In this document: in pieces, positions 3,589 through 56,409 of the stretch
Numbering within the stretch: the first letter of the stretch is position 1
How the letters are laid out: every line of letters begins with the position of its first letter
From: an uncultured Solirubrobacterales bacterium
GTDB taxonomy: Bacteria > Actinomycetota > Thermoleophilia > Solirubrobacterales > 70-9
Assembly (NCBI GenBank): GCA_963740555.1
Contig: CAVUES010000007.1
Span: 79,310-143,309 of the forward strand
Direction of reading: 5' to 3'
Length of the DNA stretch: 64,000 nucleotides
Program-made: the position numbers and the translations under genes
The notes under the pieces: generated by a model
Told to the model about the DNA's origin: nothing
Seen by the model: the letters and a program-made list of their open reading frames with translations, nothing else
The model's database searches: none

Positions 3589-3645
3589 TGGCGGCGACAC
3601 GAAGTGTCGACGCACTTGCATGTCAGGCCGGCGCGAGCTCGCCGA
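3589..3645 (+). repeat. Partial or degenerate copy (G) of the double-hairpin intergenic repeat family
   Basis: GGCGGCGACACGAAGTGTCGACGC followed by ACTTGCATGTCAGGCC matches hairpin 1 and the CATGTCAGGC spacer of the family consensus. Its 3' part overlaps the last codons and stop of the minus-strand CCG-subunit gene. Confidence 0.5.
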
Positions 3646-4534
3646 GTCGCTCCTCGACCCAGCCGGTCGAGGCGATGTGCTTGCGCATACCGAGCTGCTT
3701 GGGCTCGAAGCCGAGCGCCAGCCCGACCAGCTGCGGCAGGTGCAGCACCGCCAGCCCGAGATCGCGGTTGACGATCTTCGCCGCCTCCGGCTGCTGCATG
3801 TCGAGGTTGAGGTGGCAGAGCGGGCAGGGGGTGACAAGGCAGTCGGCGCCGGCGTCGAGCGCGTCGCCGACGTGGGTTCCCGCCTGGCGCAGCGAGGTCT
3901 CGCGGTTCATCGTGATCACCGGGAAGCCGCAGCACTTGCGGGCACCGTCGTAGTCGACCACCTCGCCGCCCAGAGCCTCGATCACCTTCTCTAGATACAG
4001 GTCGCGCTCCGGATGCTCCTCGTAGCCGAGCCGGTGCTTGGGGCGGACGACGTAGCAGCCGTAGAAGGGCCCGACCCGCAGACCTGAGAGTGGGCGGGTG
4101 ACCTTCGACCTCAGCTCCACGAGGCCATAGTCCTCGACCAGCAGCCAGAGGAAGTTCTTGTTCGTCCAGCCGTCCTTGCCCCTCTGATATTCGAGCCCCG
4201 CCCCGGAGAGCGTCTCGTTGATGTGGGCGCGATAGGCCGAGTCCGCGTCGAGCCGCTGCTGACACTCCGATTGAGCGCCCTGGCAGGTCGAGCAGATGTT
4301 CATCATCGGCAGCCCCGTCTGCTGGGCGAGCGCGAAGGTGCGCGCGTTCAGCGTGTCGGCGAGCTCCTGGTTGTGCTCGGCGATCACCCCGGCGCCGCAG
4401 CAGTTGGCCCGGTCCAGCTCGACCAGCTCGATGCCGAGCCGCTCGGCGGTCAGCGCCATCGAGCCGTGCAACTCGGGCGTGAAGCCGCGCGAGACGCAAC
4501 CCGGCCAGTAAGCAACCTTGATCTGCGGGCTCAT
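3623..4534 (-). CDS. Succinate dehydrogenase/fumarate reductase cysteine-rich subunit (HdrB-like, two CCG domains)
   Basis: [19 protein letters not shown] and a second ..[19 protein letters not shown]-type cysteine motif. The ATG overlaps the sdhB stop (ATGA). Third gene of the sdhA-sdhB operon. Confidence 0.8.
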
Positions 4535-5664
4535 TCCTCTCCCACCTCGTCGGGCTCCGGCTCGACCGCGGCCTCGGGCGCCTCCTCGTCGGGCTCCTCG
4601 CCCTTGATGTAGAGGTTCAGCTCGGTGCGGTCCTGCTCGGCGTGGGCATAGATCGCCTTGACCTCGTCCTGAGCGCCGTCGGGAAGCTTTGGGTGGATGC
4701 CGGGGATCAGCTTCGGCAGCGAGCGCATCTTGCCGGTCTTGATTCCCCGGATCGCGGTCGGCAGCGATTCGATCAGGGCCTTGACCGCGCCGCGGGGCGG
4801 CTTCAGCTTGCCCTTGATCCCCGGCGCAAACGACTCCTGCAGCAGCAGCGACTCGTCGAGGGTGCCCTTCTTCTCGATGATGTTGGTCATCGCCAGCTCG
4901 TGGCGATGACCGTTGTTGGCGTCGTCGATTCCCTCGTCGTGACCCGCGATACGGCGCAACCGCATGATCTGGTCCATTGGCGCGACGCCCTTCGGACAGG
5001 CGTCGATGCAGCTGAAGCAGTGCGTGCAGTCGTAGATCCCGTGCGGGTCCTGGGCCAGGTCGTGGAGCCGCTCGCGGGCTTCGGCGTCGCGGGGGTCGCC
5101 GACGAAGCGGTAGGCCTTCGCGAGCGCCGCGGGGCCGATGAAGTCCGGGTCGACCTCCATCGAGAGGCATGACGAGACGCAGGCGCCGCATTGGATGCAG
5201 GCCATCGACTGCGTGACGTCGATCATCGACTCGGGCGGGACGATGTACTCGCGCTCCGGCGGGTCGCCGGCCGGCAACAGCCAGGGTGTGACGCGGCGGA
5301 TCTTGGTCCAGTGGGTCGTCTCCATGTCGGTGACCAGGTCCTTGATCACCGGCATGTTTCCCATCGGCTCCACGACGATTGGCTCCGAGCCGCCATTACG
5401 GCGATTCGCCGCCGCGTGCGCGTGGCGAAGCTGGGTCTTGCAGGCGAGGGTCGATTCGCCGTTGATCTTCATCCCGCAGGAGCCGCAGATCGCCGCCCGG
5501 CAGGAGCAGCGGACGGCGAGGCTGCCGTCGTCGCGGTCCTTGGCCTGCAGGATCCCGTCGAGCACCGACAGCGACTCCTCCAGATCGACCTTGAACTCCT
5601 CCCAGAAGGGGCCCTCGCCCGACTCGGGCTGGTAGCGGCGGATCTTCAGCGTGTATTCGGCCAT
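4531..5664 (-). CDS. sdhB: Succinate dehydrogenase/fumarate reductase iron-sulfur subunit with a ~130 aa C-terminal extension
   Basis: Fe-S cysteine motifs [34 protein letters not shown] and [12 protein letters not shown]. Translationally coupled to sdhA upstream and the CCG subunit downstream. Confidence 0.9.
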
Positions 5665-7352
5665 CAGTACGTCCGTGCTTCAGGTTGCCACTGCGTGATT
5701 GTCACGTCTGAATAGCTGATCTGCGGCCCGTCTCCGTTCACTGAGAGGTTGATGTGCTTCAACCACTCTTCATCATTTCGCTCCGGGAAGTCGGTCCGGT
5801 ACTGGGCGCCCCGGCTCTCGGTGCGATGCAGCGCCCCCACGCAGATGCATTCCGCGCAGTCCAGCATGTAACCCAGCTCGAGCGCTCCCAGGACGTCCTG
5901 GTTGAAGACCGCGCCGCGGTCGTCGATGTAGGCACTCCGGGAGCGCTCCTTGAGCTCCTTGACGGTCTCCAGGGCGACCTTGATCCCGGCCTCGTCGCGG
6001 AACACGCTCACGTGCTCGTCCATGATCTTGCCGAGCTCGGCCTTGATCTCCGAGATCCGCGGGCCCGAGCCCTTCTCACGGCCGATGATCCCGTCGATCT
6101 GGGCCTCCTCGTCGCGCAGGATCGCCTCCGAGGCCCTCGACAGCTCCCGGTGCTTGGCGCGCTGGGCCGCGTCCTTGCCGGAGTGCTTGCCGAAGATCAG
6201 GGTGTCGAGCAGCGAGTTGGCGCCCAGCCGGTTGCCGCCGTGCACCGAGACGCAGGCGACCTCGCCGGCCGCGTAGAGGCCCGGAATGTCGGTAGCGCCC
6301 TTGGTGTCCGTCTTGATGCCGCCCATCGCATAGTGGTTGCCGGGCTTTATGTGGATCGGCTCGCGGGTGATGTCGACGCCGGCGAAGTCGCGGCCGACGA
6401 GGACGATCTCGCGCAGCGCCTCGTGGATTCGCTTGCGGGGGACGACGGTGATGTCGAGCGCAACGGTGCCGTCGGGAAAGCCGCGCCCCTCATTGATCTC
6501 GGTCTGCTCGGCGCGCGAGACGACGTCGCGCGAGGCCAGCTCCATCTTGTTGGGCGCGTACTTCTCCATGAAGCGCTCGCCGTTGGCGTTCAGAAGGTGA
6601 GCGCCTTCACCGCGCGCGCCCTCGGTGATCAGAAAGCCCTTGCCAGCCAGGGTGGTGGGGTGGTACTGGACCATCTCCATGTCCATCAGCTTGGCCCCGA
6701 CCCGGTAGGCCATCGCCATGCCGTCGCCGGTGCAGATCAGCGCGTTGGTGGTCGGCTTGTAGGCCTGCCCGTTGCCGCCGGTGGCGAGGATCACCGCCTT
6801 GGCGCGGAACAGCTCCATCGTCCCGTCGGCGACGTTGCGGGTCACCACGCCGCAGCAGTTGCCGTCGTCGTCGAGCGCCAGCGCGGTGCAGAACCACTCC
6901 TCGTAACGGGCGATCGCGTCGGAGAACTTCATCAGCTGCTCGTAGAGGACGTGCATGATCGCCTGGCCGGTGATGTCGGCGACGTAGTAGGTGCGCGCCG
7001 CCGAGGCTCCGCCGAAAGCTCGCGTGCCGAGCTCACCCTCCTCGTTGCGATGGAAGGTCACCCCGAGGTGCTCGAGGTGCAGAAGCTCGTCGGGCGCCTC
7101 GCGGCACATGATCTCGATCGCGTCCTGGTCGCCCAGGTAGTCGGAGCCCTTGACCGTGTCGTATGCGTGTGACTCCCAGGAGTCGTCGGGCTTGAGCGCC
7201 GCGTTGATCCCGCCCTGGGCGGCGTTGGAGTGGGAGCGGACCGGGTGGACCTTGCTGACGATTCCAACCGAGACCCCCTCCTCGGCGGCCGCCAGTGCCG
7301 CGCGCTGCCCCGCCAGCCCGGCTCCGATCACCAATACGTCGTGAGTGGGCAC
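5664..7352 (-). CDS. sdhA: Succinate dehydrogenase/fumarate reductase flavoprotein subunit
   Basis: FAD-binding N-terminus [15 protein letters not shown], the [13 protein letters not shown] covalent-FAD histidine region, and the HPT and RxxxGxNSL motifs. GTG start at 7352. Confidence 0.95.
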
Positions 7353-7466
7353 GCGCTAGACGGGGTGGTGTGCGGGTCCGCTGGGCACCTTGATCGCATC
7401 CTATATCGGGGCAGGTATGGGCCGGCGGCGCCGGCGACCCGTGGGCCTGGTTGGGGACGGCGCCGA

Positions 7467-44081: not shown

Positions 44082-44501
44082 TTGAAGAAAATTGCGGCTA
44101 CGGTCATCGCTGGCGTTCTGCTCGCCGCGGTTCCTGCGATCGCCAAGCAGACGAGCGACTCGGCTCCGGTGACCCACGGCTTTCTGACCATCGGGGGACC
44201 GAAGCGGCTGGCGCCGCAGAAGAACCTTCGCGTGCCGATTAGCTGTGCCGTCGCCTGCAAGACGAAGGCGTTGACGACCTTGACCACGCCGAGCGACAAG
44301 ATCGGGCCCGACAAGGCGCACGGGCATCTCGGCGCCGGCGTGTCACGGAAGCTCGTAGTGACGCTCAACGATGAGGCGAAGGGGGATATCGAGGCACACC
44401 CCAATTCGCGCCTGCGAGTAGTCGTGTCCGCGGTCAGCAACGACAGCGGCGAGCACGTACACGCCGTGAAGGTCTTCCAGTTCACGAGCGCCAAGCCCTA
44501 G
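44082..44501 (+). CDS. Hypothetical secreted protein
   Basis: TTG start is preceded by GGGAGG. Signal peptide MKKIAATVIAGVLLAAVPAIA. No family recognised. Confidence 0.6.
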   Translation: MKKIAATVIAGVLLAAVPAIAKQTSDSAPVTHGFLTIGGPKRLAPQKNLRVPISCAVACKTKALTTLTTPSDKIGPDKAHGHLGAGVSRKLVVTLNDEAKGDIEAHPNSRLRVVVSAVSNDSGEHVHAVKVFQFTSAKP

Positions 44502-44596
44502 CCGAGAGGCTCGGGACGCGGTCCTAGACTGCGTCCCGTGAGCGCGAGGCTCATCAAAAGAGCTTGGCCGCGGGTCGAGCGCGAACTCCGGTTGTG

Positions 44597-45373: not shown

Positions 45374-46167
45374 CCCCGGCCCGCTCGCGCCGCCAGCGGC
45401 GGCTCGGTCAGAACTTCCTCGCCGACCCCAACCTGCTGGAGGCGATCGTGCGCGAATCGGAGCTCGAGCCGGGCGACGTGGCGCTGGAGTTCGGGGCCGG
45501 TGGCGGGGCGCTCAGCGAGCGCCTCGCCGAGCGCGCCGCCCACCTGCACTCGGTCGAGGTCGATCGCCGGCTGGAGGAGGAGCTTGCGCCGCTGGGCGCC
45601 CGGCCCAACGTCACCCTGCATTGGGGCGACGCGATGAAGCTCGACCTGGCCGCGTTCGAGCCGGCGCCCGGAATCGTCGTCTCCAACCTTCCCTACTCGG
45701 TCGCGACGCCGCTGATCCTGCGCACGATCGAGGAGCTTCCGGGGGTCGACAGATGGACGGTGATGGTGCAGCTCGAGGTCGCCGAACGGCTGCGGGCGGC
45801 GCCCGGCGGCCGGGTCTACGGCGCGCCATCTGTCCTCGTTCAGCTCGCCGCCGAGGTCGAGCTGATGCGCCGGGTCCCGCCGGAGGTATTCGTGCCGCGG
45901 CCGCGGGTCGAATCGGCGGTCCTGCGCTTGCGGCGCACGGGCGCGGCGGCCCCGCGGGACCTGCGCCAGCTCGTCCGCGACGCGTTCGCCCACCGGCGTA
46001 AGTCGCTGGCCCGCTCGCTGGAGCTGGCCCGGACCGGGCGTCTCGACGCGGTTCGCCAGGCGCTTCGCGAGCTGGACCTGCCCGAGGACGCCCGCGCAGA
46101 AACCCTCTCTCCTGAAGAGTTCGCCGCCCTCGCCTCGAAGCTCCCCCGGATGACGAATGACAAATGA
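45367..46167 (+). CDS. rsmA: 16S rRNA (adenine1518/1519-N6)-dimethyltransferase
   Basis: LGQNFLADPNLL, the EFGAGGGALSERL SAM motif and VSNLPYSVATP. The ATG overlaps the end of tatD. Confidence 0.9.
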   Translation: MVTPARSRRQRRLGQNFLADPNLLEAIVRESELEPGDVALEFGAGGGALSERLAERAAHLHSVEVDRRLEEELAPLGARPNVTLHWGDAMKLDLAAFEPAPGIVVSNLPYSVATPLILRTIEELPGVDRWTVMVQLEVAERLRAAPGGRVYGAPSVLVQLAAEVELMRRVPPEVFVPRPRVESAVLRLRRTGAAAPRDLRQLVRDAFAHRRKSLARSLELARTGRLDAVRQALRELDLPEDARAETLSPEEFAALASKLPRMTNDK

Positions 46168-46184
46168 CGACCGACGAATGACGG
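46150..46184. repeat. Five tandem heptads (ATGACGA ATGACAA ATGACGA CCGACGA ATGACGG) spanning the rsmA stop, ending 8 nt before the ispE GTG
   Basis: Read directly from the sequence. An AT-enriched 7-nt periodic repeat in a GC-rich genome. A related array lies upstream of clpP. Confidence 0.7.
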
Positions 46185-46191
46185 GCGATCC

Positions 46192-47016
46192 GTGATCCTC
46201 GAAGCGCCCGCCAAGCTGAACCTCTGCCTCTATGTCGGCCCGCACCGCGACGGCGGCCTGCACGAGATTCGTTCGCTGTTCGAGCCGATCTCGCTCGCCG
46301 ACCAGATCGAGGTCACCGAGGCGGCGGAAGATCGGGTCGTGTGTCCCGAGGTGGGGGGGGAGAACCTTGCCGCCACGGCGCTGGCGGCGCTTCGCGAGCA
46401 CGGTTGGGACGGTCCCCCGGTTCGGGTGGAGATCTCGAAGCGAATCCCGGTGGCCGGCGGGCTGGGCGGAGGGAGCGCCGACGCCGCCGCCGTCCTGCGG
46501 CTCGCCGCCGGTGAGGTCGAGGGCATCGAGGAGGTGGCCGCCGAGCTGGGCGCAGACGTCCCGTCCCAGCTGCGGCCGGCCTTCTCGCTGATCGGCGGTG
46601 CGGGGGAGCGGGTCGAGCCCCTTCCCGCCCCGGGCGAGCACGCGATCGTGCTGCTGCCGCAGCCGCAGGGCCTGTCGACAGCCGACGTGTACGCGGAGGC
46701 CGATCACCTGGGTCTGGGCCGCGACGCCGGCGATCTGGAGGCACTCGCGGGCCGCGTCCGCGAGGCCACGCGGACGGGCGCGAGCCCGCTCGAGTACGAA
46801 CAGCTGCTGATCAACGACCTCGAACCGGCGGCGCTGGCGCTGCGCCCGCAGATCGCGGCGGCGCTCGATGCTCTCAACGCCGCCGGCGCCGTTCGGGCGC
46901 TGATCAGCGGCTCCGGCCCGACCGCCTTCGGACTCTTCGCCGACCTGGACACGGCGCAAGCGGCCGCCGCGAGGCTGGGCCCGGAAGCGATCGTCTGCAC
47001 GCCCGGGTCGCCATGA
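46192..47016 (+). CDS. ispE: 4-diphosphocytidyl-2-C-methyl-D-erythritol kinase
   Basis: APAKLNLCLYVG..R.DG.HEI, the GHMP kinase motif IPVAGGLGGGSADAAA, and SGSGPTAFGLF. Confidence 0.9.
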   Translation: MILEAPAKLNLCLYVGPHRDGGLHEIRSLFEPISLADQIEVTEAAEDRVVCPEVGGENLAATALAALREHGWDGPPVRVEISKRIPVAGGLGGGSADAAAVLRLAAGEVEGIEEVAAELGADVPSQLRPAFSLIGGAGERVEPLPAPGEHAIVLLPQPQGLSTADVYAEADHLGLGRDAGDLEALAGRVREATRTGASPLEYEQLLINDLEPAALALRPQIAAALDALNAAGAVRALISGSGPTAFGLFADLDTAQAAAARLGPEAIVCTPGSP

Positions 47017-48515
47017 GGGTGCCGGAGACAAGACGCGGGCGCCGGCTGCTGCTCGCGCTCGTTGTTCTGGGGGTGATCGGCTTCTGGGTGGTCGTCAACC
47101 GGGTGATCCCCCACAACGACCTCCAGAAGCTGCTCAAGGACGTCTCCAGCGCCCTCGGCGCATGGACCTATCTGCTGGTCGGGGTATTCGCCTTCCTGGA
47201 GACGGGGGCTTTCGTCGGGCTGGTCGTACCGGGCGAGACGGTGATGCTGCTCGGCGGCGCGGTCGCCGGCCAGGGCGAGATCAGCATCTATCTGCTGCTG
47301 GCGATCGCCTGGTTTTCCTGCTGGGCAGGCGACACGACGAGCTTCTTCATCGGCCGGCGCCTCGGCCGCGGCTTCGTCCTGCGCCGGGGGCCATCGGTGG
47401 GAATCAGCAACGAGCGCTTCGCCCAGGTCGAGGACTACTTCGGCCGCCACGGCGGCAAGACGATCCTGGTCGGCCGCTTCATCAGCCTCGTGCGGGCGTT
47501 GGCCCCCTTCGTCGCCGGCAGCTCCGGGATGCGCTACCGGGCCTTCGTCCCCTACAGCATCCTCGGCTGCGGGCTCTGGTCCGCTGCGCACATCCTGATC
47601 GGCTACTTCTTCTCGCGCAGCATCGACACCGCCGCCAGATACGCGGGCCGCGGCGCTTTCGTGTTCGCCACGCTGATCGTGGTCGTCGTCGGGACGGTGG
47701 TCGCTGCGCGCTTCCTGCGCGAGCCGCGCAACCGCGAGCTCAGCGTGGATTGGATGAAGTCGCACTGGGCGACTCGCTGGCTGGTCGGCGTCGGGCGCCG
47801 CCTGCGCCCGCCGGCGAGCTTTCTCTGGGATCGGTTGACGCCCGGTGGCACCTTCGGCCTCGAGTCCACGACCTTGCTCGCGGTGCTCGCGGTGTCCCTC
47901 TTCGCGCTCGTCTCCTACACGGTGGTGATCAACGGCGATCCCGGCCCGACCCCGGGGGACGTGACGGCGCTGAACGTCGCCGAGAGCCTTCAGGTCGGTT
48001 GGCTGACCAGCGTCGCCAAGGTCGTCACCGGGCTGGGCTCGGCGGCGGTGGTATTGCCGCTGGCGACGATTTCGGCGGTCGCGCTCGCCGCCGGGCGCCG
48101 CTGGCCGGAGTTCTGGGTCCTGGTGCTTGGGACGCTGATCGTCTTCGTGGGCGTAGGTGACCTCAAGGACGCCGTCGACCGGCCGCGGCCCGGCGGCGGG
48201 CTTGTCGGGGCTTCGAGCCCCTCGTTTCCGAGCGGTCACGCGGCCCATTCCGTGATCTACCTATGGGGGGCGGTGACGGTGGCGGTGCGGCTGCGTCCGG
48301 GGATGGCGCGCGCGACGGCCCTTGTCGGGGGCGGGATCGCGCTCACGGCGCTGGTCGGACTGTCCCGTGTCTATCTGCACGTCCACTACCTCAGCGACGT
48401 GAGCGCCGGTTGGGCGCTGGGGGTCTCCGCGTACACGCTGTGCGCGCTTGTCGCCCTTGTCGCCGTGCAGTTACGGCAAAATGGTCGAGGTGCTGCTTTC
48501 GAGGATCGGACCTGA
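47013..48515 (+). CDS. DedA-family membrane protein fused to a PAP2 (type 2 phosphatidic acid / undecaprenyl-PP phosphatase-like) domain
   Basis: N-terminal half has DedA motifs (FLETGAFVGLVVPGETV...GRFISLVRALAPFVAGSSGM). C-terminal half has PAP2 motifs KDAVDRPRP, PSGH and SRVYLHVHYLSD. Confidence 0.85.
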   Translation: MRVPETRRGRRLLLALVVLGVIGFWVVVNRVIPHNDLQKLLKDVSSALGAWTYLLVGVFAFLETGAFVGLVVPGETVMLLGGAVAGQGEISIYLLLAIAWFSCWAGDTTSFFIGRRLGRGFVLRRGPSVGISNERFAQVEDYFGRHGGKTILVGRFISLVRALAPFVAGSSGMRYRAFVPYSILGCGLWSAAHILIGYFFSRSIDTAARYAGRGAFVFATLIVVVVGTVVAARFLREPRNRELSVDWMKSHWATRWLVGVGRRLRPPASFLWDRLTPGGTFGLESTTLLAVLAVSLFALVSYTVVINGDPGPTPGDVTALNVAESLQVGWLTSVAKVVTGLGSAAVVLPLATISAVALAAGRRWPEFWVLVLGTLIVFVGVGDLKDAVDRPRPGGGLVGASSPSFPSGHAAHSVIYLWGAVTVAVRLRPGMARATALVGGGIALTALVGLSRVYLHVHYLSDVSAGWALGVSAYTLCALVALVAVQLRQNGRGAAFEDRT

Positions 48516-48768
48516 GGAGCTCTTCCAGCTCTGGAAGTTTCTGGTCAATAACTACCCGCTGGGCTTCGTCGCCGCGGGGGCGGTCAGCCTGGTCGCTTTC
48601 GTCAGCCTGATCCTGGTCCCGGCGGTCGAGTCCTACGGCCGTGCCTGGGAGAAGGTCGCGGCTGGCTTCATGTCGCTGTTCGTGCTCACGACAATGGTTG
48701 CGGTCGGGAGCGTGATCGGCCTGATGGTCTTCTACTACTCGAACGACCTCGTCAACGCGGTGCCCTAG
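48481..48768 (+). CDS. Small two-TM membrane protein, hypothetical
   Basis: ATG at 48481 overlaps the end of the DedA-PAP2 gene. Two hydrophobic helices. No family recognised. Confidence 0.45.
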   Translation: MVEVLLSRIGPEELFQLWKFLVNNYPLGFVAAGAVSLVAFVSLILVPAVESYGRAWEKVAAGFMSLFVLTTMVAVGSVIGLMVFYYSNDLVNAVP

Positions 48769-48810
48769 CGTCGCCGACGCCTGGCTTGCGCGGGCAGCCA
48801 TAATTCCCGG

Positions 48811-50049
48811 GTGCCCGCGGCCCGAGACACGCAGAAAGAGCCTGCAAAGAACCCAGACGGGGGATCGCTGGATGCGCTCGCTGAGGCGGTCGAATCGGGC
48901 GCCGGCCTACCGGCAGTGGCGCGGGCGGCCTCCAAGATCCTCGACGCCTCGGTGGCCCTGATCGACCGCTCCAGCGCCGTGCTGGCGGTCGCGGGCGCCG
49001 CCCGCGACCAGGAGGAGAAGCTGCTCGCCGGCGGGGAGGGAGTTGTCTCGGTCGAGCTGCGGGTCGCCGACGCGTCGGTTGGCGAGTTGCGCTATCGCGC
49101 GGCCGCGACCCCCGACGCGGCGATCGCCCGCATGGTCTCGACCCTGCTCGCATTGGAGCTGGAGCGGGCGCGCTCACCCGAGTGGGCGAGCGAGGAGGCG
49201 GCGGCGGGGTTCGTGCGCGCCGTGCTCGATCGCGAGGTGACCGATCGCGGGGACATCCTCGCTCGCGCCGCCGAGCTCGGTGCGGAGCTCGAGGCCGGAG
49301 CGGGAGTGCTGATCCTGCGGGCGGCGCCGCGAGCCGCCCAGGCGGAGGAGTGGCGCGCGAGGGTGCTGACGTTGGCGCTTCGGGCACTGCGTTCGGCGGC
49401 CCACGGGTGCCTGGCCTCCCTCGAGGGCGGCGACTCGGCCGAGGTTGCCGTGATCGTGCCAGCGGAGGACGACGGGAGGCTGGAGCGCGCCGCGGCGATT
49501 CTCGAGCAGGAGCTGGCCGAAAGCCTGTTCTCCGGATTTCACCTCACGATTGGCTCCAGCCGCCGTGTGGCGGATCCGGTCGACCTCTATCGGGCGGGGA
49601 AGGAGGCGCGGCTCGCCGTGAACGTCGGCGAGGCCGAGGGATGTGCGGTCCTCTCCTTCGAGAACACCGGCGCCTACCGGCTGCTGCTGCCGGCGATGAG
49701 CGAGGACTCGGGCGAGCTGGAGCGCTTCTACGCCGAGACGATCGAGCCTCTGTCGGCTTACGACGAGCAGTACGAGACCGAGCTGGTGACGACGATCGAG
49801 ACCTACCTGGAGAACGACGGCAACGTCGCCGCGACGGCGAAGCAGCTGTTCACCCATCGGCACACGATCCGCTACCGGCTCGAGCGTGCCAAGGAGCTGT
49901 GCGGGCACGACGTCTCCTCGACCGAGGGCCGCGAGAGGCTCGGACTCGGATTGAAGGCGATGCGCGTGCTCGGCATCGCCTCACCTCGCGGACCGGCCCT
50001 GGAGCCGGGCGCCGAGGCGGGTCAGGTTCCGCGCGGCAGTGATGAGTAG
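48811..50049 (+). CDS. PucR/CdaR-family transcriptional regulator
   Basis: The C-terminal PucR HTH (NVAATAKQLFTHRHTIRYRLERAKEL) is preceded by a GGDEF-like/PucR middle region. Confidence 0.85.
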   Translation: MPAARDTQKEPAKNPDGGSLDALAEAVESGAGLPAVARAASKILDASVALIDRSSAVLAVAGAARDQEEKLLAGGEGVVSVELRVADASVGELRYRAAATPDAAIARMVSTLLALELERARSPEWASEEAAAGFVRAVLDREVTDRGDILARAAELGAELEAGAGVLILRAAPRAAQAEEWRARVLTLALRALRSAAHGCLASLEGGDSAEVAVIVPAEDDGRLERAAAILEQELAESLFSGFHLTIGSSRRVADPVDLYRAGKEARLAVNVGEAEGCAVLSFENTGAYRLLLPAMSEDSGELERFYAETIEPLSAYDEQYETELVTTIETYLENDGNVAATAKQLFTHRHTIRYRLERAKELCGHDVSSTEGRERLGLGLKAMRVLGIASPRGPALEPGAEAGQVPRGSDE

Positions 50050-50112
50050 CCGCGACACAAGGTGTCGCGGCAGGGGCATGTCAGGCGGCCGAAGGCCGCC
50101 GCAGTTTATTCA
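50047..50112 (+). repeat. Double-hairpin repeat, copy B; fills the whole convergent gap
   Basis: TAGCCGCGACACAAGGTGTCGCGGCAGGGGCATGTCAGGCGGCCGAAGGCCGCCGCAGTTTATTCA. The left end includes the pucR-like TAG. The right end includes the TCA (TGA) stop of the minus-strand SRPBCC gene. Confidence 0.85.
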
Positions 50113-50574
50113 GGAGCCCTTGCCACGGGCGTAGGGCTCGAGGCCCTCGATCGCCCGTTTGATCGACCAGTCGTGGTTCCAGCGGAACACCGGTCGCAGC
50201 ACCGGGGTCAGGTAGCGAAGCAGAGGGCGGTCTGCGATCACCCGCCAGTCGAAGCGGATGTGGACTCGCCCATCGTCGGCTTTGGTCAGCGTCCAGACGC
50301 CACGGCCGGTAAGGTCGCCGACAACCGAGACCTCGAACCCGCGCGGCGGGTCGTAGCGGACGATCTCCGAGGTCGTGTTCAGCGTGTAGGGAAGCCGCCC
50401 CTTGAAGTGCTGCTTCGAGGTCCGGCCGACCTCGGGCGGCCCGTCGGTCTCGACGTCGATGTAGACCGGCGTCCACCAGCGCGGATAGGTGCTGGCGTCG
50501 GCGAGGGCCGCGAACACCGCCTCCTGGGGGGCGTCCACGTCCCACTCGTCGATGAACACGTATTCCGAAGCCAT
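50110..50574 (-). CDS. SRPBCC (START/polyketide-cyclase-like) family protein
   Basis: VFAALADASTYPRWW...GRGVWTL... pattern typical of SRPBCC ligand-binding proteins. Start ATG at 50574. Confidence 0.75.
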   Translation of the reverse strand: MASEYVFIDEWDVDAPQEAVFAALADASTYPRWWTPVYIDVETDGPPEVGRTSKQHFKGRLPYTLNTTSEIVRYDPPRGFEVSVVGDLTGRGVWTLTKADDGRVHIRFDWRVIADRPLLRYLTPVLRPVFRWNHDWSIKRAIEGLEPYARGKGS

Positions 50575-50615
50575 CAGGCGTCTGTCTGTCTCTGCGCGGG
50601 CGGGGATCGATCGGA

Positions 50616-50951
50616 TCAATGCCCGAGCATACGGCGCAGGCGAGCAAGCCGATCGTCCCACTCGCCGCCCACATCGGCGATCCACGCTGCCGCATCCTCG
50701 AGCGGCGCTGGCTCCAGCTCGTAGAGGATCTCGCGGCCAGACCGCCGGCTGTGCACCAACCCGGCTTCGCCGAGCGCGGCCAGGTGCTTGCTGACCGCCT
50801 GGCGGCTGATCGGTAGCTCGGCTGCGAGCGCGGTTGCGCTCGCGCCGCCCCCCGAGGCGAGCTTCTGGACCAGATGCCGCCGCGTCGGGTCCGCGAGCGC
50901 GGCGAAGACCTCGCCCCCCTGCCCCGGTTCGTGGGGGAGCGCCGCTGACAT
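50616..50951 (-). CDS. ArsR/SmtB-family transcriptional regulator
   Basis: FAALADPTRRHLVQKL....ATALAAELPISRQAVSKHLAALGEAGLV winged-HTH. Confidence 0.9.
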   Translation of the reverse strand: MSAALPHEPGQGGEVFAALADPTRRHLVQKLASGGGASATALAAELPISRQAVSKHLAALGEAGLVHSRRSGREILYELEPAPLEDAAAWIADVGGEWDDRLARLRRMLGH

Positions 50952-50958
50952 CACCGGC

Positions 50959-51354
50959 TCAGGCGTAGGCGAGGTCGGCGAGCGCGACGCGCAGCGAATC
51001 GAGGCGCCGTCGCCAGCCCTCGGAAGCCTCGGCGCTGGCCCTTGGCTCGAGCCCGGTCTCACTCACCGTCAGTCTGGTCCCGCCATCGACCTCCTCGACG
51101 CGGAACTCGACCCGGCTCTCAGCCAGGCCGTCGCGCCGCCAGCGAAACGCCAGCCGCTCGCCCTCCTCGACCAGCTCGACGGCGCCCGGCCGCTCTTCGC
51201 CGTCCTCGGTACGGCAGAGAACCGCTCCGCGGGGACGGAGGTCGAGCTCGACCTCCGGCGCGAGCCAGTCGCGCAGCATCGCTTCGTCGGAGACCGCCTT
51301 CCAAACCTCTTCGGCCGGAAGGTCGATCAGCAGGGTGCGCTCGATCGAAGCCAT
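50959..51354 (-). CDS. SRPBCC / AHSA1-like (activator of Hsp90 ATPase homolog 1-like) protein
   Basis: IERTLLIDLPAEEVWKAVSD...LRDWL...RLAFRW. First gene of the SRPBCC-ArsR-SRPBCC operon. Start ATG at 51354. Confidence 0.75.
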   Translation of the reverse strand: MASIERTLLIDLPAEEVWKAVSDEAMLRDWLAPEVELDLRPRGAVLCRTEDGEERPGAVELVEEGERLAFRWRRDGLAESRVEFRVEEVDGGTRLTVSETGLEPRASAEASEGWRRRLDSLRVALADLAYA

Positions 51355-51371
51355 GCAACCTAATGGTTGCA
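51354..51371. promoter_or_regulatory. Candidate ArsR operator 1
   Basis: TGCAACC-TAAT-GGTTGCA is a perfect 7-4-7 palindrome followed by CATC. It abuts the start codon of the first operon gene. Confidence 0.5.
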
Positions 51372-51390
51372 CATCTTGCTACGGTTGACC

Positions 51391-51408
51391 TGCAACGAAT
51401 AGGTTGCA
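51391..51408. promoter_or_regulatory. Candidate ArsR operator 2
   Basis: TGCAAC-GAATAG-GTTGCA palindrome, also followed by CATC, 37 nt from operator 1. Confidence 0.45.
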
Positions 51409-51414
51409 CATCGA

Positions 51415-51449
51415 AGGACGAATGACGAATGACGAACAGCGAGGTGTGA
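51415..51449. repeat. Heptad tandem repeat (AGGACGA ATGACGA ATGACGA ACAGCGA GGTGTGA) ending 4 nt before the clpP ATG
   Basis: Read directly from the sequence. The first three units match the array at 46150-46184. Confidence 0.6.
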
Positions 51450-51453
51450 ACCC

Positions 51454-52071
51454 ATGTCCCTGATCCCAATCGTGGTCGAGCAGACGCCCCGCGGCGAGCG
51501 CTCCTTCGACATCTACAGCCGGCTGCTCGGCGACCGCATCGTCTTCATCGGCCAGCCGATCACCGAGGACCTGGCGAACCTGGTGGTGGCGCAGCTTCTG
51601 CACCTCGACTCCGAGGACCCCGAGAAGGACATCAGCATCTACGTCAACTCCCCCGGGGGCTCCGCCTACGCCGGGCTCGCGATCTACGACACGATGCAAT
51701 TCATTAAGGCCGACGTGCAGACGATCTGCTTCGGGATCGCGATGTCGGCGGGCTCGTTGATTCTGACCGGGGGAGCCAAGGGAAAGCGAATGGCGCTGCC
51801 CAACTGCCGCATCCTCATCCACCAGCCGACCGGCGGCTTCGAGGGTCAGTCCGCCGACATCGAGATCCACGCCCGCGAGATCCTCCAGCTGCGCGCGCGG
51901 ATCGAGGCGATCTACGTCCAGCACAGCGGCCAGCAGGCCAAGCGCGTCCACGAGGACATGGAGCGGGACCATTTCTTCGACCCTGAGGAGGCGGTCGAGT
52001 ACGGGCTGATCGACCGGGTGATCGAGTCGCACGAGCTGCAGCGCACGCCGGTCGGCTTCCGCGAAGGCTGA
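51454..52071 (+). CDS. clpP: ATP-dependent Clp protease proteolytic subunit
   Basis: [22 protein letters not shown], the GIAMSAGS catalytic Ser and IHQP catalytic His regions. Confidence 0.95.
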
Positions 52072-52073
52072 GG

Positions 52074-52145
52074 TTCCGGGGGGAGGATTTGAACCCCCGC
52101 TTCCTGGACCAAAACCAGGCGTGCTGCCGACTACACCACCCCGGA
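52074..52145 (-). tRNA. tRNA-Gln (anticodon TTG)
   Basis: Manual cloverleaf on the minus strand. Acceptor TCCGGGG/CCCCGGA. Anticodon stem CCTGG/CCAGG with loop TTTTGGT. T-arm GGGGGTTCAAATCCTCC. 72 nt with discriminator A. CCA is not fully encoded. Confidence 0.85.
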
Positions 52146-52178
52146 CCAGCCCCGACCTTAGCGCCGCCGGAAGAAGGT

Positions 52179-52940
52179 GTGGGATCGTCCGTCGACGTGG
52201 GCTTGCCAGACGCGACAGCGATCCGACCCAGCGTGGTTTACGGCGAGACCCTTGCGACATACGTCCGCCGCGCTCCCCAGCTTCTGCTGGTCGGAGCGAT
52301 CGTCTTCGTGCCGTTGGGGCTCATGGAAGCGGTTGTGGGGCGCGCCGGGTCGATCGGATCGGCGGCCGACAACGGCATCACGATCGTGGCGGTGCTCGCG
52401 CTCCTCTTGGTGCAGGTCGTCGTTGGCCTGGTCGGCGAGGTGTTCTACAGCGGCGCAGTCGCCAACCTGATCGCCTTCCAGCGGCGCGGTGACCTGGTGT
52501 CCCTGCGGACGCTGGCCGCGAGGCTCGCGTACGGGCGCTTGATCGCGGTCGCGGTCCTCAACGACATCGCGGTGGCGGTCGGCCTGCTCGCATTCGTGGT
52601 TCCAGGAGTGGTCCTTTTCACATGGCTGGCCCTCGCGGCACCACTGGTCGAGCTACAGGGATGCGGTGTTCGGGAGGCGTTTTCACGCAGCCGGCGGCTG
52701 GTGCGTGGCCAGTTCTGGCGCGTGCTTGCGGTGCTGGGGCCGATCACGCTTGCGAGCCAGAGCCTCGACGATGCGGTCCGCGTCGCCGCCCACCGCATCG
52801 TCGGTCACGGCCTGGTCGCCGATTGGCTCGCGGACGCGGCCACCAGCGTTTTCATCTACCCGCTTTATGCCGTCGCCGCGGTCCTGATCACTCTTCAATT
52901 GATCGGCCAGGCGCCGTCCACGGCAGCGGCGCGGGGCTAG
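52179..52940 (+). CDS. Polytopic membrane protein, hypothetical
   Basis: Several TM helices. The ORF opens at 52089 but that part overlaps the tRNA. GTG 52179, after GAAGAAGG, is chosen tentatively. Confidence 0.5.
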   Translation: MGSSVDVGLPDATAIRPSVVYGETLATYVRRAPQLLLVGAIVFVPLGLMEAVVGRAGSIGSAADNGITIVAVLALLLVQVVVGLVGEVFYSGAVANLIAFQRRGDLVSLRTLAARLAYGRLIAVAVLNDIAVAVGLLAFVVPGVVLFTWLALAAPLVELQGCGVREAFSRSRRLVRGQFWRVLAVLGPITLASQSLDDAVRVAAHRIVGHGLVADWLADAATSVFIYPLYAVAAVLITLQLIGQAPSTAAARG

Positions 52941-52955
52941 ACTCGCGGCGCGCCT

Positions 52956-53801
52956 GTGATCTCGATCCCGATCGCCTCATTCGTCTCCGACTTCTGGACC
53001 GACCAGATCTCGACTGAGCACCGGGACGGCATCTTCCTGGTCCTGGTCGGCTTCATCCTTTCCTTCGCGTTCATTCGCATGAGCACGCGGCTGATGCGCA
53101 GCCCCCGGTTCTCCTGGTGGCCGGGCAGCGTGGTCAGCGACAGCGGCGTCCACATCCACCACCTCGTGTTCGGGATCTGCACGATGATCCTGGCCGGCAC
53201 CGTCGGGTTCGCCTCCACCGGCTCTCAGCCCTGGTTCGACATCGCGGCGGGCCTGTTTGGCGTCGGGGTCGGGCTGACGATCGACGAGTTCGCGCTCTGG
53301 GTCTACCTCGACGACGTCTACTGGTCCGAGGAGGGACGAAAATCGGTCGACGCGACGGTGATCGCGGCCGCCGGCATGCTGCTGATCCTGTTCGGATTCG
53401 AGCCCTTCAACTTCACGACCAGCTCCGTCGGCGAGGTGATCTCGAGTTTCGCCGGCGCGGCGCTGCTGTTCGCGATGGTCGCTGTCTGCTTCGCGAAGGG
53501 GCGCATCATGCACGGCTACATCGGCTTCTTTCTGCTCCCTATAGCGATCTACGGCGCCTCACGGCTCGGCAAGCCCGACTCGCCGTGGGCGCGGCGCTTC
53601 TATGGCGAGCGGCGCCCCGACAAGCAGGCCGCGGCCGTGCAGCGCTTCCGGCCGGAGCGGCGCACCGAGCGCTTCAAGCAGCGGTTCCGCGACATCGTCG
53701 GTGGGGCGACCGAGGAGGAGTACGAGGCGAAGCTCGCTCAGCAGGCCGCCAGCCGCGAAGCGGCAGAGAAGATGCGAAGCCGCGCGCAGCGCGTGCCCTG
53801 A
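52956..53801 (+). CDS. Polytopic membrane protein with a basic C-terminal tail, hypothetical
   Basis: GTG start. About 6 TM helices, then a charged tail (RFRPERRTERFKQRFRD...). No family recognised. Confidence 0.55.
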   Translation: MISIPIASFVSDFWTDQISTEHRDGIFLVLVGFILSFAFIRMSTRLMRSPRFSWWPGSVVSDSGVHIHHLVFGICTMILAGTVGFASTGSQPWFDIAAGLFGVGVGLTIDEFALWVYLDDVYWSEEGRKSVDATVIAAAGMLLILFGFEPFNFTTSSVGEVISSFAGAALLFAMVAVCFAKGRIMHGYIGFFLLPIAIYGASRLGKPDSPWARRFYGERRPDKQAAAVQRFRPERRTERFKQRFRDIVGGATEEEYEAKLAQQAASREAAEKMRSRAQRVP

Positions 53802-53819
53802 GCCTTCGGTCCCTACCAG

Positions 53820-53877
53820 CACTTGCGGTGGCTTCGCCGCCTGAGCGCATTTTGCCGCGGGGCGATCTGTCGCGGCC
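53820..53877 (-). repeat. Double-hairpin repeat, copy F (degenerate)
   Basis: The plus strand reads CACTTGCGGTGGCTTCGCCGCCTGAGCGCATTTTGCCGCGGGGCGATCTGTCGCGGCC. It ends 15 nt before the proposed glmU GTG. Confidence 0.7.
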
Positions 53878-53891
53878 GTACCATCTCTGCC

Positions 53892-55310
53892 GTGAACGGC
53901 GCGCGCGCTGACGGCCCAACCGTCCTAGTGATGGCGGCAGGCGAGGGAACACGGATGCACTCATCCGTGCCCAAGGCCCTGCACATGGTCTGCGGCCGCC
54001 CGATGATCGCCTGGCCGATCCTCGCCGCCCGCGAGGCGGGCGCCGGGAGGGTGGTCGCGATCGTCTCCCCGCAGCGCGACATCTCAGCCGGACTGCCGCC
54101 CGACACCGAGACGGTCCCGCAGCCGCAGGCCGACGGCACCGGGGGCGCGATTCGCGCCGCGCTTGACGTGGTGCGCGAGTCGAGGACCGTGGTCGTGCTC
54201 TCCGGAGATCACCCGGTGATCTCGGCGGCGGCGATCCGCGGCTTGCTCGACGCCCACGATGCGAACGGCGCCGCGGCGACCGTGATGACCACGGAGCTCG
54301 AAGAGCCGGGTGCCTATGGGCGGATCGTTCGCGCAACCGATGGCAGCCTGGAGCGAATCGTCGAGGCCAAGGCGCCGGGTGACGCGACCCCCGAGGAGCT
54401 GCGGATCAAGGAGATCAACGCCGGCACCTACGTCTTCGATGGCACGGCGCTTGCAGCGGCGCTCGACGGGATCTCCAACGACAACGCCCAGGGCGAGTAC
54501 TACCTCGGCGACGTGCTGCCCCTGATCCGCGCCGCCGGCGGGGGAGTGACCGCCCACCTGGTCGACGGAGACGCGGTGACCCTGGGCGTGAACTCGCGCC
54601 TCGACCTCGCCAACGCGACCGCCGAGGCCCGCCGCCGCATCCTCGAGCGCCACATGCTGGCCGGTGTGACGATCACCGATCCCAACGCCACCTGGATCGA
54701 CGCCGACGTCGAGATCGCCGCCGACGCGACGATCGAGCCCGGGACGACGCTTCACGGCCGCTCCGAGATCGGCGCCGGCTCGGTGGTGGGGCCGAACACG
54801 ACCCTGATCGACAGCAAGCTCGGCGAGCGGGTCGCCGCTCCGCACTCCTATCTCGTCGACTGCGAGGTGCTGGACGGTTGCGCGGTCGGGCCATTCGCCT
54901 ACATCCGTCCCCAGACCGTGCTCGCCGAAGGGGCAAAGGCGGGGGCGTTCGTGGAGATCAAGAACTCGCGTGTGGGGGAGGGGGCGAAGGTGCCGCACCT
55001 CTCCTACGTGGGGGACGCCGAGATCGGCGCCGGCTCCAACCTCGGCGCCGGAACGATCACCGCCAACTACGACGGATTTCGCAAAAACCGCACTGTGATC
55101 GGTGAGCACTGCCGCATAGGCGTTGACACGATGCTCGTCGCACCGGTAAGCATCGGAGACGGCGCTTACACTGGCGCTGGTGCGGTGATCCGCAAGGACG
55201 TGCCGCCCGGGGCGCTGGCGGTTCCGCTGGAGGATAGGCAGCGCCACATCGAGGGCTACGCAGAGCGCAAAGCGAAGCAGGCCGAAGAAGACCAGGAGAC
55301 AGGCTCGTGA
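53892..55310 (+). CDS. glmU: Bifunctional UDP-N-acetylglucosamine diphosphorylase / glucosamine-1-phosphate N-acetyltransferase
   Basis: LVMAAGEGTRMHSSVPKALH N-terminus, EYYLGDV, and C-terminal left-handed beta-helix hexapeptide repeats. GTG 53892 start is tentative. Confidence 0.9.
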   Translation: MNGARADGPTVLVMAAGEGTRMHSSVPKALHMVCGRPMIAWPILAAREAGAGRVVAIVSPQRDISAGLPPDTETVPQPQADGTGGAIRAALDVVRESRTVVVLSGDHPVISAAAIRGLLDAHDANGAAATVMTTELEEPGAYGRIVRATDGSLERIVEAKAPGDATPEELRIKEINAGTYVFDGTALAAALDGISNDNAQGEYYLGDVLPLIRAAGGGVTAHLVDGDAVTLGVNSRLDLANATAEARRRILERHMLAGVTITDPNATWIDADVEIAADATIEPGTTLHGRSEIGAGSVVGPNTTLIDSKLGERVAAPHSYLVDCEVLDGCAVGPFAYIRPQTVLAEGAKAGAFVEIKNSRVGEGAKVPHLSYVGDAEIGAGSNLGAGTITANYDGFRKNRTVIGEHCRIGVDTMLVAPVSIGDGAYTGAGAVIRKDVPPGALAVPLEDRQRHIEGYAERKAKQAEEDQETGS

Positions 55311-56332
55311 GCACGATCGAGGAACCGCGTCCGGCTGTAACGGCGATCCCCCACGACTACTCGAAGCGCCTGATGGTCTTCGGGGGGCGCTGCTCGATGG
55401 ACCTTGCTGCGAAGATCGCTGGCAAGCTCGACCTCGATCTCGGCCAGGTGGAACTGAAGACGTTTGCCAACGGCGAGGTCTACTGCCGCTACAGCGAGTC
55501 GATCCGCGGCGCCGACGTCTTCCTGGTCCAGTCCACGGCCGCCAACGAGATGCACGGCATGACGCCGAACGACGCCCTGCTGGAGCTGCTGATGATGATC
55601 GACGCCGCCCAGGGCGCCTCCGCGCACCGGATCATCGCCGTGACCCCCTGGTACGGCTACGCGCGCCAGGACAAGAAGTCGGCCCCCCGCGAGCCGATCT
55701 CCGCCCGCGTGGTCGCCAAATGCCTGGAGGGAGTGGGAGTGGACAGGGTGCTGACCATGGACCTGCACGCCGGCCAGGTGCAGGGCTTCTTCCATATCCC
55801 CGTCGACCACATGACCGCGATGCCGATGCTCACCCGGTGGTTCATGGACCAGAACTTCGGCGATGAGCTGGTGATCGTCTCCCCGGACGCCGGCCGGGTG
55901 AAGATGGCGCGCAACTTCGCCCGCAAGCTGGGTGTCCACTGGGCGGTAATGGAGAAGGAGCGCCCCGCCCATCAGGTGGCCAAGGCCGGCTATGTGGTCG
56001 GGGACGTGAAGGGCAAGACGGCGGTCCTGGTCGACGACATGATCGATACCGCTGGGACGCTGTGCGCGGCGGCTGAGACCGTTGTCGAGGAGGGTGCGGC
56101 GCGGGTGATTGCCTGCGCCACCCACGGCGTCTTCTCGGATCCTGCGTTCGAGCGCCTGCAGGGCTCGGGGATCGAGCAGATCGTCGTCACTGACACGATT
56201 CCGCTGCGCATCGAAGCGCCGGACAACATCATTGTGCTCTCGACCGCCGGCACGTTCGCCGACTCGATCCGGCGCATCTTCACCGACGACTCGGTGTCGG
56301 AGATCTTCGCGGGAGAGAACCAGCTCTTTTAG
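55307..56332 (+). CDS. prs: Ribose-phosphate pyrophosphokinase
   Basis: FANGEVYCRYSESIRGADVFLVQS, the PWYGYARQDKK motif, and the VLVDDMIDTAGTL PRPP-binding loop. The GTG start overlaps the glmU stop. Confidence 0.95.
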   Translation: MSTIEEPRPAVTAIPHDYSKRLMVFGGRCSMDLAAKIAGKLDLDLGQVELKTFANGEVYCRYSESIRGADVFLVQSTAANEMHGMTPNDALLELLMMIDAAQGASAHRIIAVTPWYGYARQDKKSAPREPISARVVAKCLEGVGVDRVLTMDLHAGQVQGFFHIPVDHMTAMPMLTRWFMDQNFGDELVIVSPDAGRVKMARNFARKLGVHWAVMEKERPAHQVAKAGYVVGDVKGKTAVLVDDMIDTAGTLCAAAETVVEEGAARVIACATHGVFSDPAFERLQGSGIEQIVVTDTIPLRIEAPDNIIVLSTAGTFADSIRRIFTDDSVSEIFAGENQLF

Positions 56333-56343
56333 CTGGTTAGGTC

Positions 56344-56409
56344 GAGGCCGCGACACAAAGTGTCGCGGCAGTCGCTGGTCAGGCGGCCGAAGGCCGCCGC
56401 AAGTATTCG
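56344..56409 (+). repeat. Double-hairpin repeat, copy C
   Basis: GAGGCCGCGACACAAAGTGTCGCGGCAGTCGCTGGTCAGGCGGCCGAAGGCCGCCGCAAGTATTC. It starts 12 nt after the prs stop. Confidence 0.85.

Follow-up and report, generated by a model that had tools for sequence, protein, structure and literature searches.

A Double-Hairpin Intergenic Repeat Family with REP-like Behavior at Gene Ends of Uncultured Solirubrobacterales

Introduction

Members of the Solirubrobacterales are abundant in soil, and most of them are known only from metagenome-assembled genomes (MAGs). The present work concerns a 64,000-nt stretch of DNA from one such uncultured bacterium (NCBI GenBank assembly GCA_963740555.1, contig CAVUES010000007.1, positions 79,310 to 143,309 of the forward strand; "the window" below means this whole stretch), in which a short sequence that folds into two hairpins recurs between genes in both orientations. 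An initial annotation, made from the letters of the window alone, reported eight copies of this repeat and considered that it could be a mobile element, a transcription terminator or a protein-binding site. The question raised by the locus is what kind of element this is, how its copies reach their positions, and what keeps them there.

The present analysis shows that both hairpins are kept by compensatory substitutions, the family being a structured repeat under selection for base pairing, and that its copies crowd at gene ends, above all in convergent gaps. The explanation that we favor, and consider probable, is a lineage-specific, non-coding and non-autonomous repeat family of the repetitive extragenic palindrome (REP)/BIME type, which is tolerated and perhaps used as a transcript-end structure.

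Results and Discussion

The Repeat Family and Its Structure

All eight copies reported initially were found again, at or within a few bases of the positions given and in the same orientations. They align over ca. 60 nt with 22 invariant columns, and a repeat finder recovers them as the families D1-D3 and I1-I13. The sub-pattern GTCAGGCGGC-N2-6-GCCGCCGCA occurs five times in the window, which has a G+C content of 68.6%, whereas 0.00 occurrences are expected from 100 shuffles. A covariance model (CM R1), built from seven copies with the two-hairpin structure as input, assigns 57-86 bits (E 1e-12 to 1e-19) to the eight copies and detects a ninth, internally deleted one at 34 bits. Outside the known copies, the other full-length CM matches in the window do not exceed 16 bits. 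The 64 kb hence carry nine copies, five on the plus and four on the minus strand:

3588-3650, plus strand: copy 1, partial, with left arm, hairpin 1 (9 of 10 pairs) and linker, and no true hairpin 2; CM 60 bits
8677-8717, plus strand: copy 9, with the linker and the 5′ half of hairpin 2 deleted, hairpin 1 and tail kept; CM 34 bits, E 1.5e-6
32701-32766, plus strand: copy 2, complete; CM 81.6 bits; fold -33.8 kcal/mol, z -6.3
37755-37843, minus strand: copy 3, composite, in the order hairpin 1, linker, hairpin 2a, linker, hairpin 2b, tail
42325-42387, minus strand: copy 4, complete; CM 82.3 bits
42408-42470, minus strand: copy 5, with a degenerate hairpin 1 (GAAAC...GGAGC variant); CM 75.1 bits
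50046-50112, plus strand: copy 6, complete and near consensus; CM 81.5 bits
53819-53879, minus strand: copy 7, with a decayed hairpin 1; CM 57.4 bits
56344-56409, plus strand: copy 8, complete; CM 86.3 bits

The two-hairpin structure was proposed correctly at the outset: a 10-bp stem closed by a 3-nt loop is followed by a 6-7-bp stem with a GAA-type loop, and single copies fold with energies of -33 to -48 kcal/mol and z-scores of -3.3 to -6.3. The length of 60-70 bp given for the repeat was, on the other hand, too short. Conservation sets in 11 nt ahead of hairpin 1 and stops 10 nt past hairpin 2, and in 58 non-redundant copies the information content lies above background only between these limits, corresponding to a unit of ca. 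75-80 nt. The unit starts with a left arm of ca. 11 nt, which is C-poor and T/G-rich. It is followed by the G+C-rich hairpin 1 (consensus GCCGCGACAC-AAA-GTGTCGCGGC, 10 bp), the linker (A-SNNN-GC-WKG-TCAGG), hairpin 2 (CGGC(C)-GAA-(G)GCCG, 6-7 bp) and the tail (CCGCAAKTGATT). Conservation drops to zero past the arms, and the repeat is thus not a fragment of a longer duplicated gene or of the end of an insertion sequence (IS), an outcome that the initial annotation had named as one that would overturn it.

Even in the 36 copies without a stop codon in the vicinity, the left arm is poor in C, and that of copy 6 substitutes for terminal codons present in three outgroups; we therefore consider the left arm, at least in part, to belong to the element. 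By eye and in sequence logos it resembles the tail (RGTNAT), and in the 66-nt tandem arrays described below one motif doubles as tail and arm. The alignment score of left arm and tail is not above the shuffled control (3.77 vs 3.70), and a direct redundancy of the two termini is not claimed.

Compensatory Changes in the Stems

The covariation of the stems was evaluated over 63 copies. The search patterns had fixed parts of the stems, so that the signal is, if anything, underestimated. Standard pairs are formed in 97.6% of the pair cells. Changes on both sides occur in 9 of the 16 pairs and in 22 cells in total, against 1.4 expected, a number that none of 500 shuffles reaches. Sliding the 3′ partner by 1-3 columns lowers the pairing to 20-60% and abolishes the signal. 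In the orthologue of copy 7 at the glmU site of locus L018 (loci are numbered with the prefix L), a G:C pair at the base of hairpin 1 is swapped to C:G, suggesting that pairing has been maintained in place within an orthologous copy.

It is at this point that a double-stranded DNA site has to be considered, in which the palindromes would act as operators recognized by a nucleoid-associated protein or by a dimeric regulator. Binding of IHF and gyrase is known for BIMEs, and several properties of the present element would suit such a function: the two halves of hairpin 1 form a 10-bp inverted repeat that is perfect and has a spacer of 3 bp, the motifs in linker and tail show sequence conservation, and some copies are located in promoter gaps (glyQS/fmdB and ddn-like/metG). 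However, the compensatory swaps (G:C to C:G and G:C to A:T) alter the half-site while keeping the pairing, which fits a folded strand but not a dimer that reads the sequence. In addition, most copies lie at gene 3′ ends, and their flanking genes share no function, the ten of them being housekeeping genes, as are 20 other scanned genes of the window. We consider a DNA-binding site to be highly improbable.

Distribution across Genomes and Metagenomes

The family extends beyond the window, into related genomes and metagenomes. A strict pattern scan over one genome per species (185,579 species) yields 17 loci. Sixteen of them belong to five Solirubrobacterales MAGs, ten being from MFD04944.bin.1.16 alone, and the CM confirms 22 copies in the strict-pattern loci. 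With a looser pattern, 58 loci were obtained from metagenome contigs, about 30 of which hold 34 CM-confirmed copies. No match was found in the plasmid, phage and viral-contig collections that were searched. Moreover, four relatives with 72-85% GlmU identity carry no copy in 77 kb syntenic with a part of the window that has three, so that the family is confined to a sub-clade of uncultured Solirubrobacterales (Actinomycetota, Thermoleophilia).

Some pattern matches were discarded. The only genome match outside the Solirubrobacterales, L008 in an "Aeromicrobium" MAG, is due to chance, as it consists of a partial hairpin 1 with no hairpin 2 and has no CM match. About 24 of the 58 metagenome loci were likewise dropped for want of CM confirmation, an example being L068, an ordinary terminator on a contig of 62% G+C.

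The supposition that the repeat corresponds to no Rfam family is borne out, in that Rfam 15 at gathering thresholds gives only a tRNA-Gln in the window; at E<=10, copies 4 and 5 yield only noise of at most 14 bits. In the literature on repeats in Solirubrobacterales and related genera, we found no description of the family. CRISPR had been dismissed initially, and rightly so: the spacing ranges from 83 nt to 24 kb and the orientation is mixed.

Placement of the Copies Relative to Genes

The gaps that hold the copies were classified with a rough gene caller using codon-position G+C, according to which, for 65 copies, 22 gaps are convergent, 27 co-directional (17 with the copy antisense, 10 sense) and 7 divergent. 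For most copies, a stop codon lies no more than ca. 20 nt away on at least one side, and for many the distance is -5 to +20 nt. Among the 12 convergent junctions of the window, four have a copy, two have an unrelated hairpin repeat, and two more have a copy in a relative. The contact with the genes can be intimate. Stop codons lie within the arms of copies 2 and 6 and of the copy in L043, and in the latter two the arms hold the stops of both convergent genes, with one to four final codons that are not those of the empty alleles. All nine window copies are intergenic apart from such overlaps with gene termini, as had been claimed. The related claim that all four forward copies start 0-14 nt past the stop codon of a plus-strand gene is wrong for copy 1, where the nearest plus-strand gene ends at 3194 and the overlap is with the stop of a minus-strand HdrB-like gene.

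Tight placement on either side of stop codons is also what would be expected of a host-selected, lineage-specific transcription termination signal resembling the TRIT motif, read by RNA polymerase or by a hairpin-binding factor and spread by its usefulness instead of by mobility. The enrichment of convergent gaps points in the same direction, and the hairpins would work in both orientations. Canonical sites composed of a hairpin and a U-tract are not enriched (9 vs 6.3 expected in a scan of 44001-64000), making another signal plausible. Furthermore, the single-stranded TCAGG and GCAAKT motifs are conserved besides the stems, as noted for TRIT (PMC3152330). Several observations are nevertheless difficult to accommodate. 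The 7 divergent gaps would not need a terminator, and with corrected gene starts, window copies 3, 4, 5 and 9 fall into divergent promoter gaps, copy 5 even abutting the metG start codon. The factor-independent terminator considered in the initial annotation is not supported: the usual U-tract is missing, the usual tail being GCAAKTGATT with no T run in the reverse orientation, and only copy 6 passes a hairpin-plus-T-run scan of 44001-64000. The mycobacterial RNA polymerase reportedly needs a U-tract in vitro, a finding ascribed to Czyz and co-workers in 2014.

Gain, Loss and Rearrangement at Orthologous Sites

Parts of the window could be compared with orthologous sequences of 80-88% DNA identity in L007, L009, L018, L019 and several metagenome contigs. 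The window alone has copy 6. The orthologous gap lacks it in five relatives (L018, L019, L007, L078 and L080), and copy 6 is thus a gain in the lineage of the window. The event was no simple insertion, as copy 6 replaces ca. 40 nt of the target.

The site of copy 7 gives a different picture. The window, L018, L075, L007 and L052 all carry a copy there, with position and orientation unchanged, and the site is empty in L019, L078 and L079. The site of L019 is clean and its allele nested within the filled ones in the glmU tree, and in L079 the first ten bases of the element seem to have been retained. The alleles thus point to the empty sites of L019 and L079 being secondary losses of an old insertion.

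Further differences were found at other junctions. A junction that carries no copy in the window has one in L009, directly past a stop codon; a convergent gap of 4 nt in L002 corresponds to a filled site in L043; and L066 has a copy at a junction where the two genes of the window overlap. In the gap past prs, a forward copy occupies one and the same site in the window, L031 and L054, L018 carries another arrangement, a composite that is partly in reverse orientation, and L019 is empty. Between copy 8 and its counterpart in L031, the stems are conserved and the variable part of the linker has changed, which would also be consistent with a termination signal.

The copies are in addition arranged in complex ways. 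Tandem arrays of two to three units, with periods of 66-83 nt, are formed by copies 4 and 5 (83 nt), in L044 and L070 (66 nt), and in L058 (three units, 70 nt). Nested composites, in which a full unit is found within the hairpin 1 loop of another copy, are of at least three kinds (L012-L014 together with L053; L029; L041), and one of them is present at three loci of one genome. The REP-like behavior that the initial annotation had suggested is supported by orthologous sites that are filled in some genomes and empty in others, and by the tandem, modular-composite and nested arrangements. In L002 and L043, the intervals between inverted copy pairs (0.7-1.5 kb) were inspected for a transposase, and the enclosed genes turned out to be HD-domain and YjbQ-like ones.

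These results bear on the termination signal introduced above. Self-propagating repeats typically show nesting, tandem arrays, here with as many as three units, and independent arrangements within a single gap, and at the same junctions the element is missing from close relatives. Because of these properties and of the copies in divergent gaps, a terminator role is likely a secondary effect and not the reason for the existence of the family; as the explanation of the family, the termination signal is conceivable, at a probability well short of even.

The size and the copy behavior of the element would also fit a classical miniature inverted-repeat transposable element (MITE), that is, an internally deleted IS moved by a DDE transposase that reads terminal inverted repeats and produces a fixed-length target-site duplication. 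Repeats of 5 nt are indeed seen at the junctions in two filled/empty comparisons (TGGTA...TGGTA at the copy-7 site and GCTAG...GCTCG in L009), and the words common to the two flanks of one copy are slightly longer than those common to flanks across copies (mean 4.0 vs 3.58, permutation p 0.0065). However, tandem copies inflate the outcome of the flank test, in which matches of at least 5 nt are not significant (12, p 0.08). The offset of the putative duplication from the stem is inconsistent (0-3 nt), L075 has the same site as copy 7 without the right-hand TGGTA, and none of the loci was seen to contain a parent IS with matching ends. The MITE-like reading of the initial annotation fails on the terminal inverted repeats themselves, since local alignment of the 5′ end with the reverse complement of the 3′ end scores below the shuffled control (5.25 vs 5.40, 60 copies). 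A DDE-type MITE is unlikely because inverted terminal repeats are absent, the 5-nt duplications are not reproduced in position or across alleles, and the flank test is weak; we give it very little credence.

We have also considered that no dedicated enzyme is involved, and that the copies spread and are lost by template switching during replication or by illegitimate recombination at short homologies, stimulated by the hairpins. Template switching is a live alternative because of microhomology at several junctions. The fragment of copy 1, comprising arm, hairpin 1 and linker, is joined exactly at a native TCAGGC that matches the linker motif of the element itself; at the orthologous site of L009, the ca. 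40 nt of copy 1 are absent and the native TCAGGC is already there. The copy-7 target GGTAGGG(G)CC overlaps the NGGGCC start of the element. The clean loss in L019 took place between short direct repeats, and the 10-nt remnant in L079, the internal deletion that gave copy 9, the target nucleotides replaced by copy 6 and the element ends, which differ by a few nucleotides among copies, are all in line with such events. On the other hand, neither the ca. 60 full-length copies with well-defined ends nor the strict conservation of the single-stranded motifs is readily explained by template switching alone, and the 13-20% divergence between the compared genomes blurs all junctions. An entirely enzyme-free origin is for these reasons rather unlikely in our estimate.

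Proposed Mechanism of Spread

We return here to the non-autonomous REP/BIME-type repeat as the favored explanation. In the scenario that we propose, the unit would be copied to new sites by a process acting on its folded hairpins as single-stranded DNA. Such a process fits the data because hairpins are found near both ends with conserved single-stranded motifs beside them, loss can be seamless, and insertion occurs into hairpin loops; it would be of the kind known from REP/RAYT or IS200/IS605. It could consist of an enzyme acting in trans, for which a Y1/HUH-type transposase such as the REP-associated tyrosine transposase (RAYT) is the obvious candidate, or of template switching at short homologies. 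The copies would then persist at gene 3′ ends, where an insertion of ca. 80 nt is presumably least harmful. The stable hairpins would probably act either way round, by blocking 3′ exonucleases or by impeding read-through between convergent genes.

A RAYT was searched for with phmmer and jackhmmer, using approximate IS608 TnpA and E. coli YafM queries, in the window and 77 loci (488 kb). No Y1/RAYT-like open reading frame (ORF) of the element's hosts was recovered in this set, a negative that is weak because a RAYT is normally present in one copy per genome. The 62% G+C contig of L068, pulled in by chance, does encode a clear RAYT-like protein at 6713-7459 (minus strand), with the HUH motif HVHLL and the tyrosine motif YIELNP; its detection by the same query serves as a positive control.

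Besides this negative, two further results weigh against the proposed explanation. Several of the "empty" sites may be secondary deletions, copy 6 being the only one polarized as a gain. Moreover, no strand asymmetry is evident in the stems, where G-U cells (6) are no commoner than A-C cells (5), so that no single transcribed strand is favored.

A more specific proposal, which we put forward only as a speculation of low probability, is that the element is the non-autonomous partner of a hairpin-recognizing enzyme in Thermoleophilia, RAYT-like HUH or other, or else the motif of a U-tract-independent termination factor. Such a hairpin-recognizing enzyme may insert at sites that resemble the tail of the element, including the loop of its own hairpin 1. 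The element would then be a vertically inherited replicator of the REPIN-RAYT type in Actinomycetota, of which our searches found no report for this order.

Gene Settings of the Window Copies

At copy 1, the TCA of the native TCAGGC is the stop codon (3623) of the HdrB-like gene, which encodes a CCG/HdrB-like domain, and the identity with L009 is 82% over the 255-nt flank nearby. The ca. 190-nt intergenic stretch that leads from a Usp-like gene to this copy (3400-3590) aligns for the most part with L009 about as well as the flanking coding DNA does. It contains no convincing ORF and has no Rfam match at E<=1, and it may represent an unannotated small RNA or leader.

Copy 9 is found in the divergent gap between an M50 protease gene (minus) and an M28 peptidase gene (plus), where L009 has no copy, and its hairpin 1 shows two compensatory pair changes (GCGACGACAC/GTGTCGTCGC). 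Copy 2 occupies the convergent gap between an amidase gene (plus), whose TGA stop at 32700-32702 sits within the left arm, and a ribonucleotide-reductase-small-chain-like gene (minus). In the composite copy 3, the CM gives 71 bits over 37783-37843, and the extra hairpin 2 (37762-37781) scores 18 bits; hairpin 2a is the compensatory variant GCCGC/GCGGC. Its divergent gap separates glyQS (minus, start 37693) from an FmdB-type zinc-ribbon gene (plus, start 37940).

The tandem of copies 4 and 5 is in the divergent gap between a Ddn-like gene (minus) and metG (plus). The hairpin 1 variant of copy 5 recurs as the outer, or "host", part of the nested composites in L012-L014 and L053. The 5′ end of copy 5 lies 2 nt before the metG ATG at 42473, and no room is left for a Shine-Dalgarno sequence outside the repeat (42408-42475), because of which metG may be leaderless or translated from within the repeat.

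The two stops held by the arms of copy 6 are TAG at 50047-50049, of a Na+/H+ exchanger-like gene, and TCA at 50110-50112, of a cyclase-like gene. Copy 7 lies between a gene for a 281-aa protein with no assigned function (plus) and glmU (plus, 53955-55310), antisense to both.

Copy 8 starts 11 nt past the prs stop codon, in the convergent gap with a DUF1059 gene. Directly 5′ of it, a native hairpin at 56311-56334 spans the prs stop (AACCAGCT-CTTTT-AGCTGGTT), the TAG straddling the loop and the 3′ arm. In L031 (311-335), this hairpin is lengthened to an 11-bp perfect stem. The DUF1059 gene (56423-56668, minus) is without the stop found in L018 and L019 (...PMPGS*), and its frame reads through copy 8 and antisense into prs, forming a 470-aa ORF at 55256-56668. 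Either the repeat has remodeled the end of this gene or the MAG contains a 1-nt indel.

Other Features of the Window

A second, unrelated structured repeat occurs at 20810-20880 and 30270-30340, both times in a convergent gap. It forms a long hairpin of ca. 75 nt (GGCCGGRGGGCRGGGGCCCTC...GCTAGCCAACCACCCCRTAGCCCTAGCTCGGACCCCYGCCC) with a 41-nt core that is 95% identical between the two copies and shows a compensatory G:C to A:T difference; it was not seen in the loci L001-L077. An inverted repeat pair of 60 nt (15637-15696 and 44537-44596, 80% complementary) has both arms at gene 5′ ends, namely those of a large adenylate-cyclase/AAA gene (minus) and of a gene starting near 44594 (plus), and may represent a leader or promoter motif common to both. 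Intergenic tandem runs of the ATGACGA type, which are short and A/T-richer, are present at 46147-46191 and 51412-51442.

Implications

Assemblies can be broken or confused by a high-copy structured repeat of this kind at the ends of genes. The repeat also alters gene calling, in that it supplies stop codons and last codons, and one neighboring gene seems to have lost its stop. At the same time, it provides a convenient lineage and strain marker. Should transcript 3′ ends map to the hairpins, the family would be a second actinobacterial sequence-conserved terminator-like motif lacking the usual U-tract, after TRIT. Should a cognate enzyme be found, REPIN-RAYT-type systems would be extended to this actinobacterial order.

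Comparison with Known Systems

REP and REPIN sequences are mobilized by RAYT, a Y1 HUH transposase (PF01797) whose single-copy gene is flanked by the repeats; the REP palindromes measure 20-40 nt. The present element shares many features with the REP/BIME/REPIN sequences of Enterobacteria and Pseudomonas. Both are short, G+C-rich imperfect palindromes that are extragenic, occur in both orientations and are concentrated at gene 3′ ends. Both form modular mosaics and tandem clusters, persist vertically in a lineage while being polymorphic between relatives, have no terminal inverted repeats and no consistent target-site duplication, and keep their stems by compensatory change. However, there is no sequence similarity, and the element (consensus nnGGCCGCGACAC...) has no GTAG-type head, only a loose RGT being found ca. 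9-11 nt upstream of the stem. Its two hairpins differ in sequence and are each self-paired, whereas a REPIN consists of two inverted REPs that form one long hairpin. The host also differs, belonging to an actinobacterial order for which the literature searched contains no report of such repeats.

IS608 and ISDra2 are reported to show a strand bias. The ends of the IS200/IS605 family and the derived PATEs, like the present element, have subterminal hairpins at both ends, no terminal inverted repeats and no consistent target-site duplication, conserved short single-stranded motifs beside the hairpins, and seamless loss, as in L019. In contrast, no tnpA or tnpB was found near the element, its two hairpins differ from each other, and its orientation is mixed within the 64 kb (five plus, four minus). 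The MITEs (Correia, ERIC/IRU, RUP, BOX, Nezha) are similar in their length of 60-150 nt, strong secondary structure, intergenic location, insertion polymorphism and remodeling of gene ends, but they have terminal inverted repeats and a defined target duplication (e.g., TA for Correia), while the element has no such repeats and no consistent duplication.

The TRIT motif of Mycobacterium is likewise actinobacterial, restricted to a genus or order, palindromic and conserved in sequence. It is largely bidirectional, is placed tightly at annotated stop codons, often overlapping the coding end, and occurs in a high-G+C genome poor in canonical terminators. As described by Gardner et al. 2011 (PMC3152330), TRIT is a single conserved hairpin that M. 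tuberculosis carries in 147 copies, whereas the element has two hairpins with arms and is found in arrays, nested copies and divergent promoter gaps. The two were compared by description, and the resemblance is of a functional kind only.

The element should be regarded as a new family that works like REP, and should not be filed under REP-RAYT, MITE or canonical terminators, because it lacks the head motif and the REPIN doublet of the first, the terminal inverted repeats of the second and the usual U-tract of the third. By analogy, its closest counterparts appear to be REP/BIME/REPIN for behavior and TRIT for placement and host phylum.

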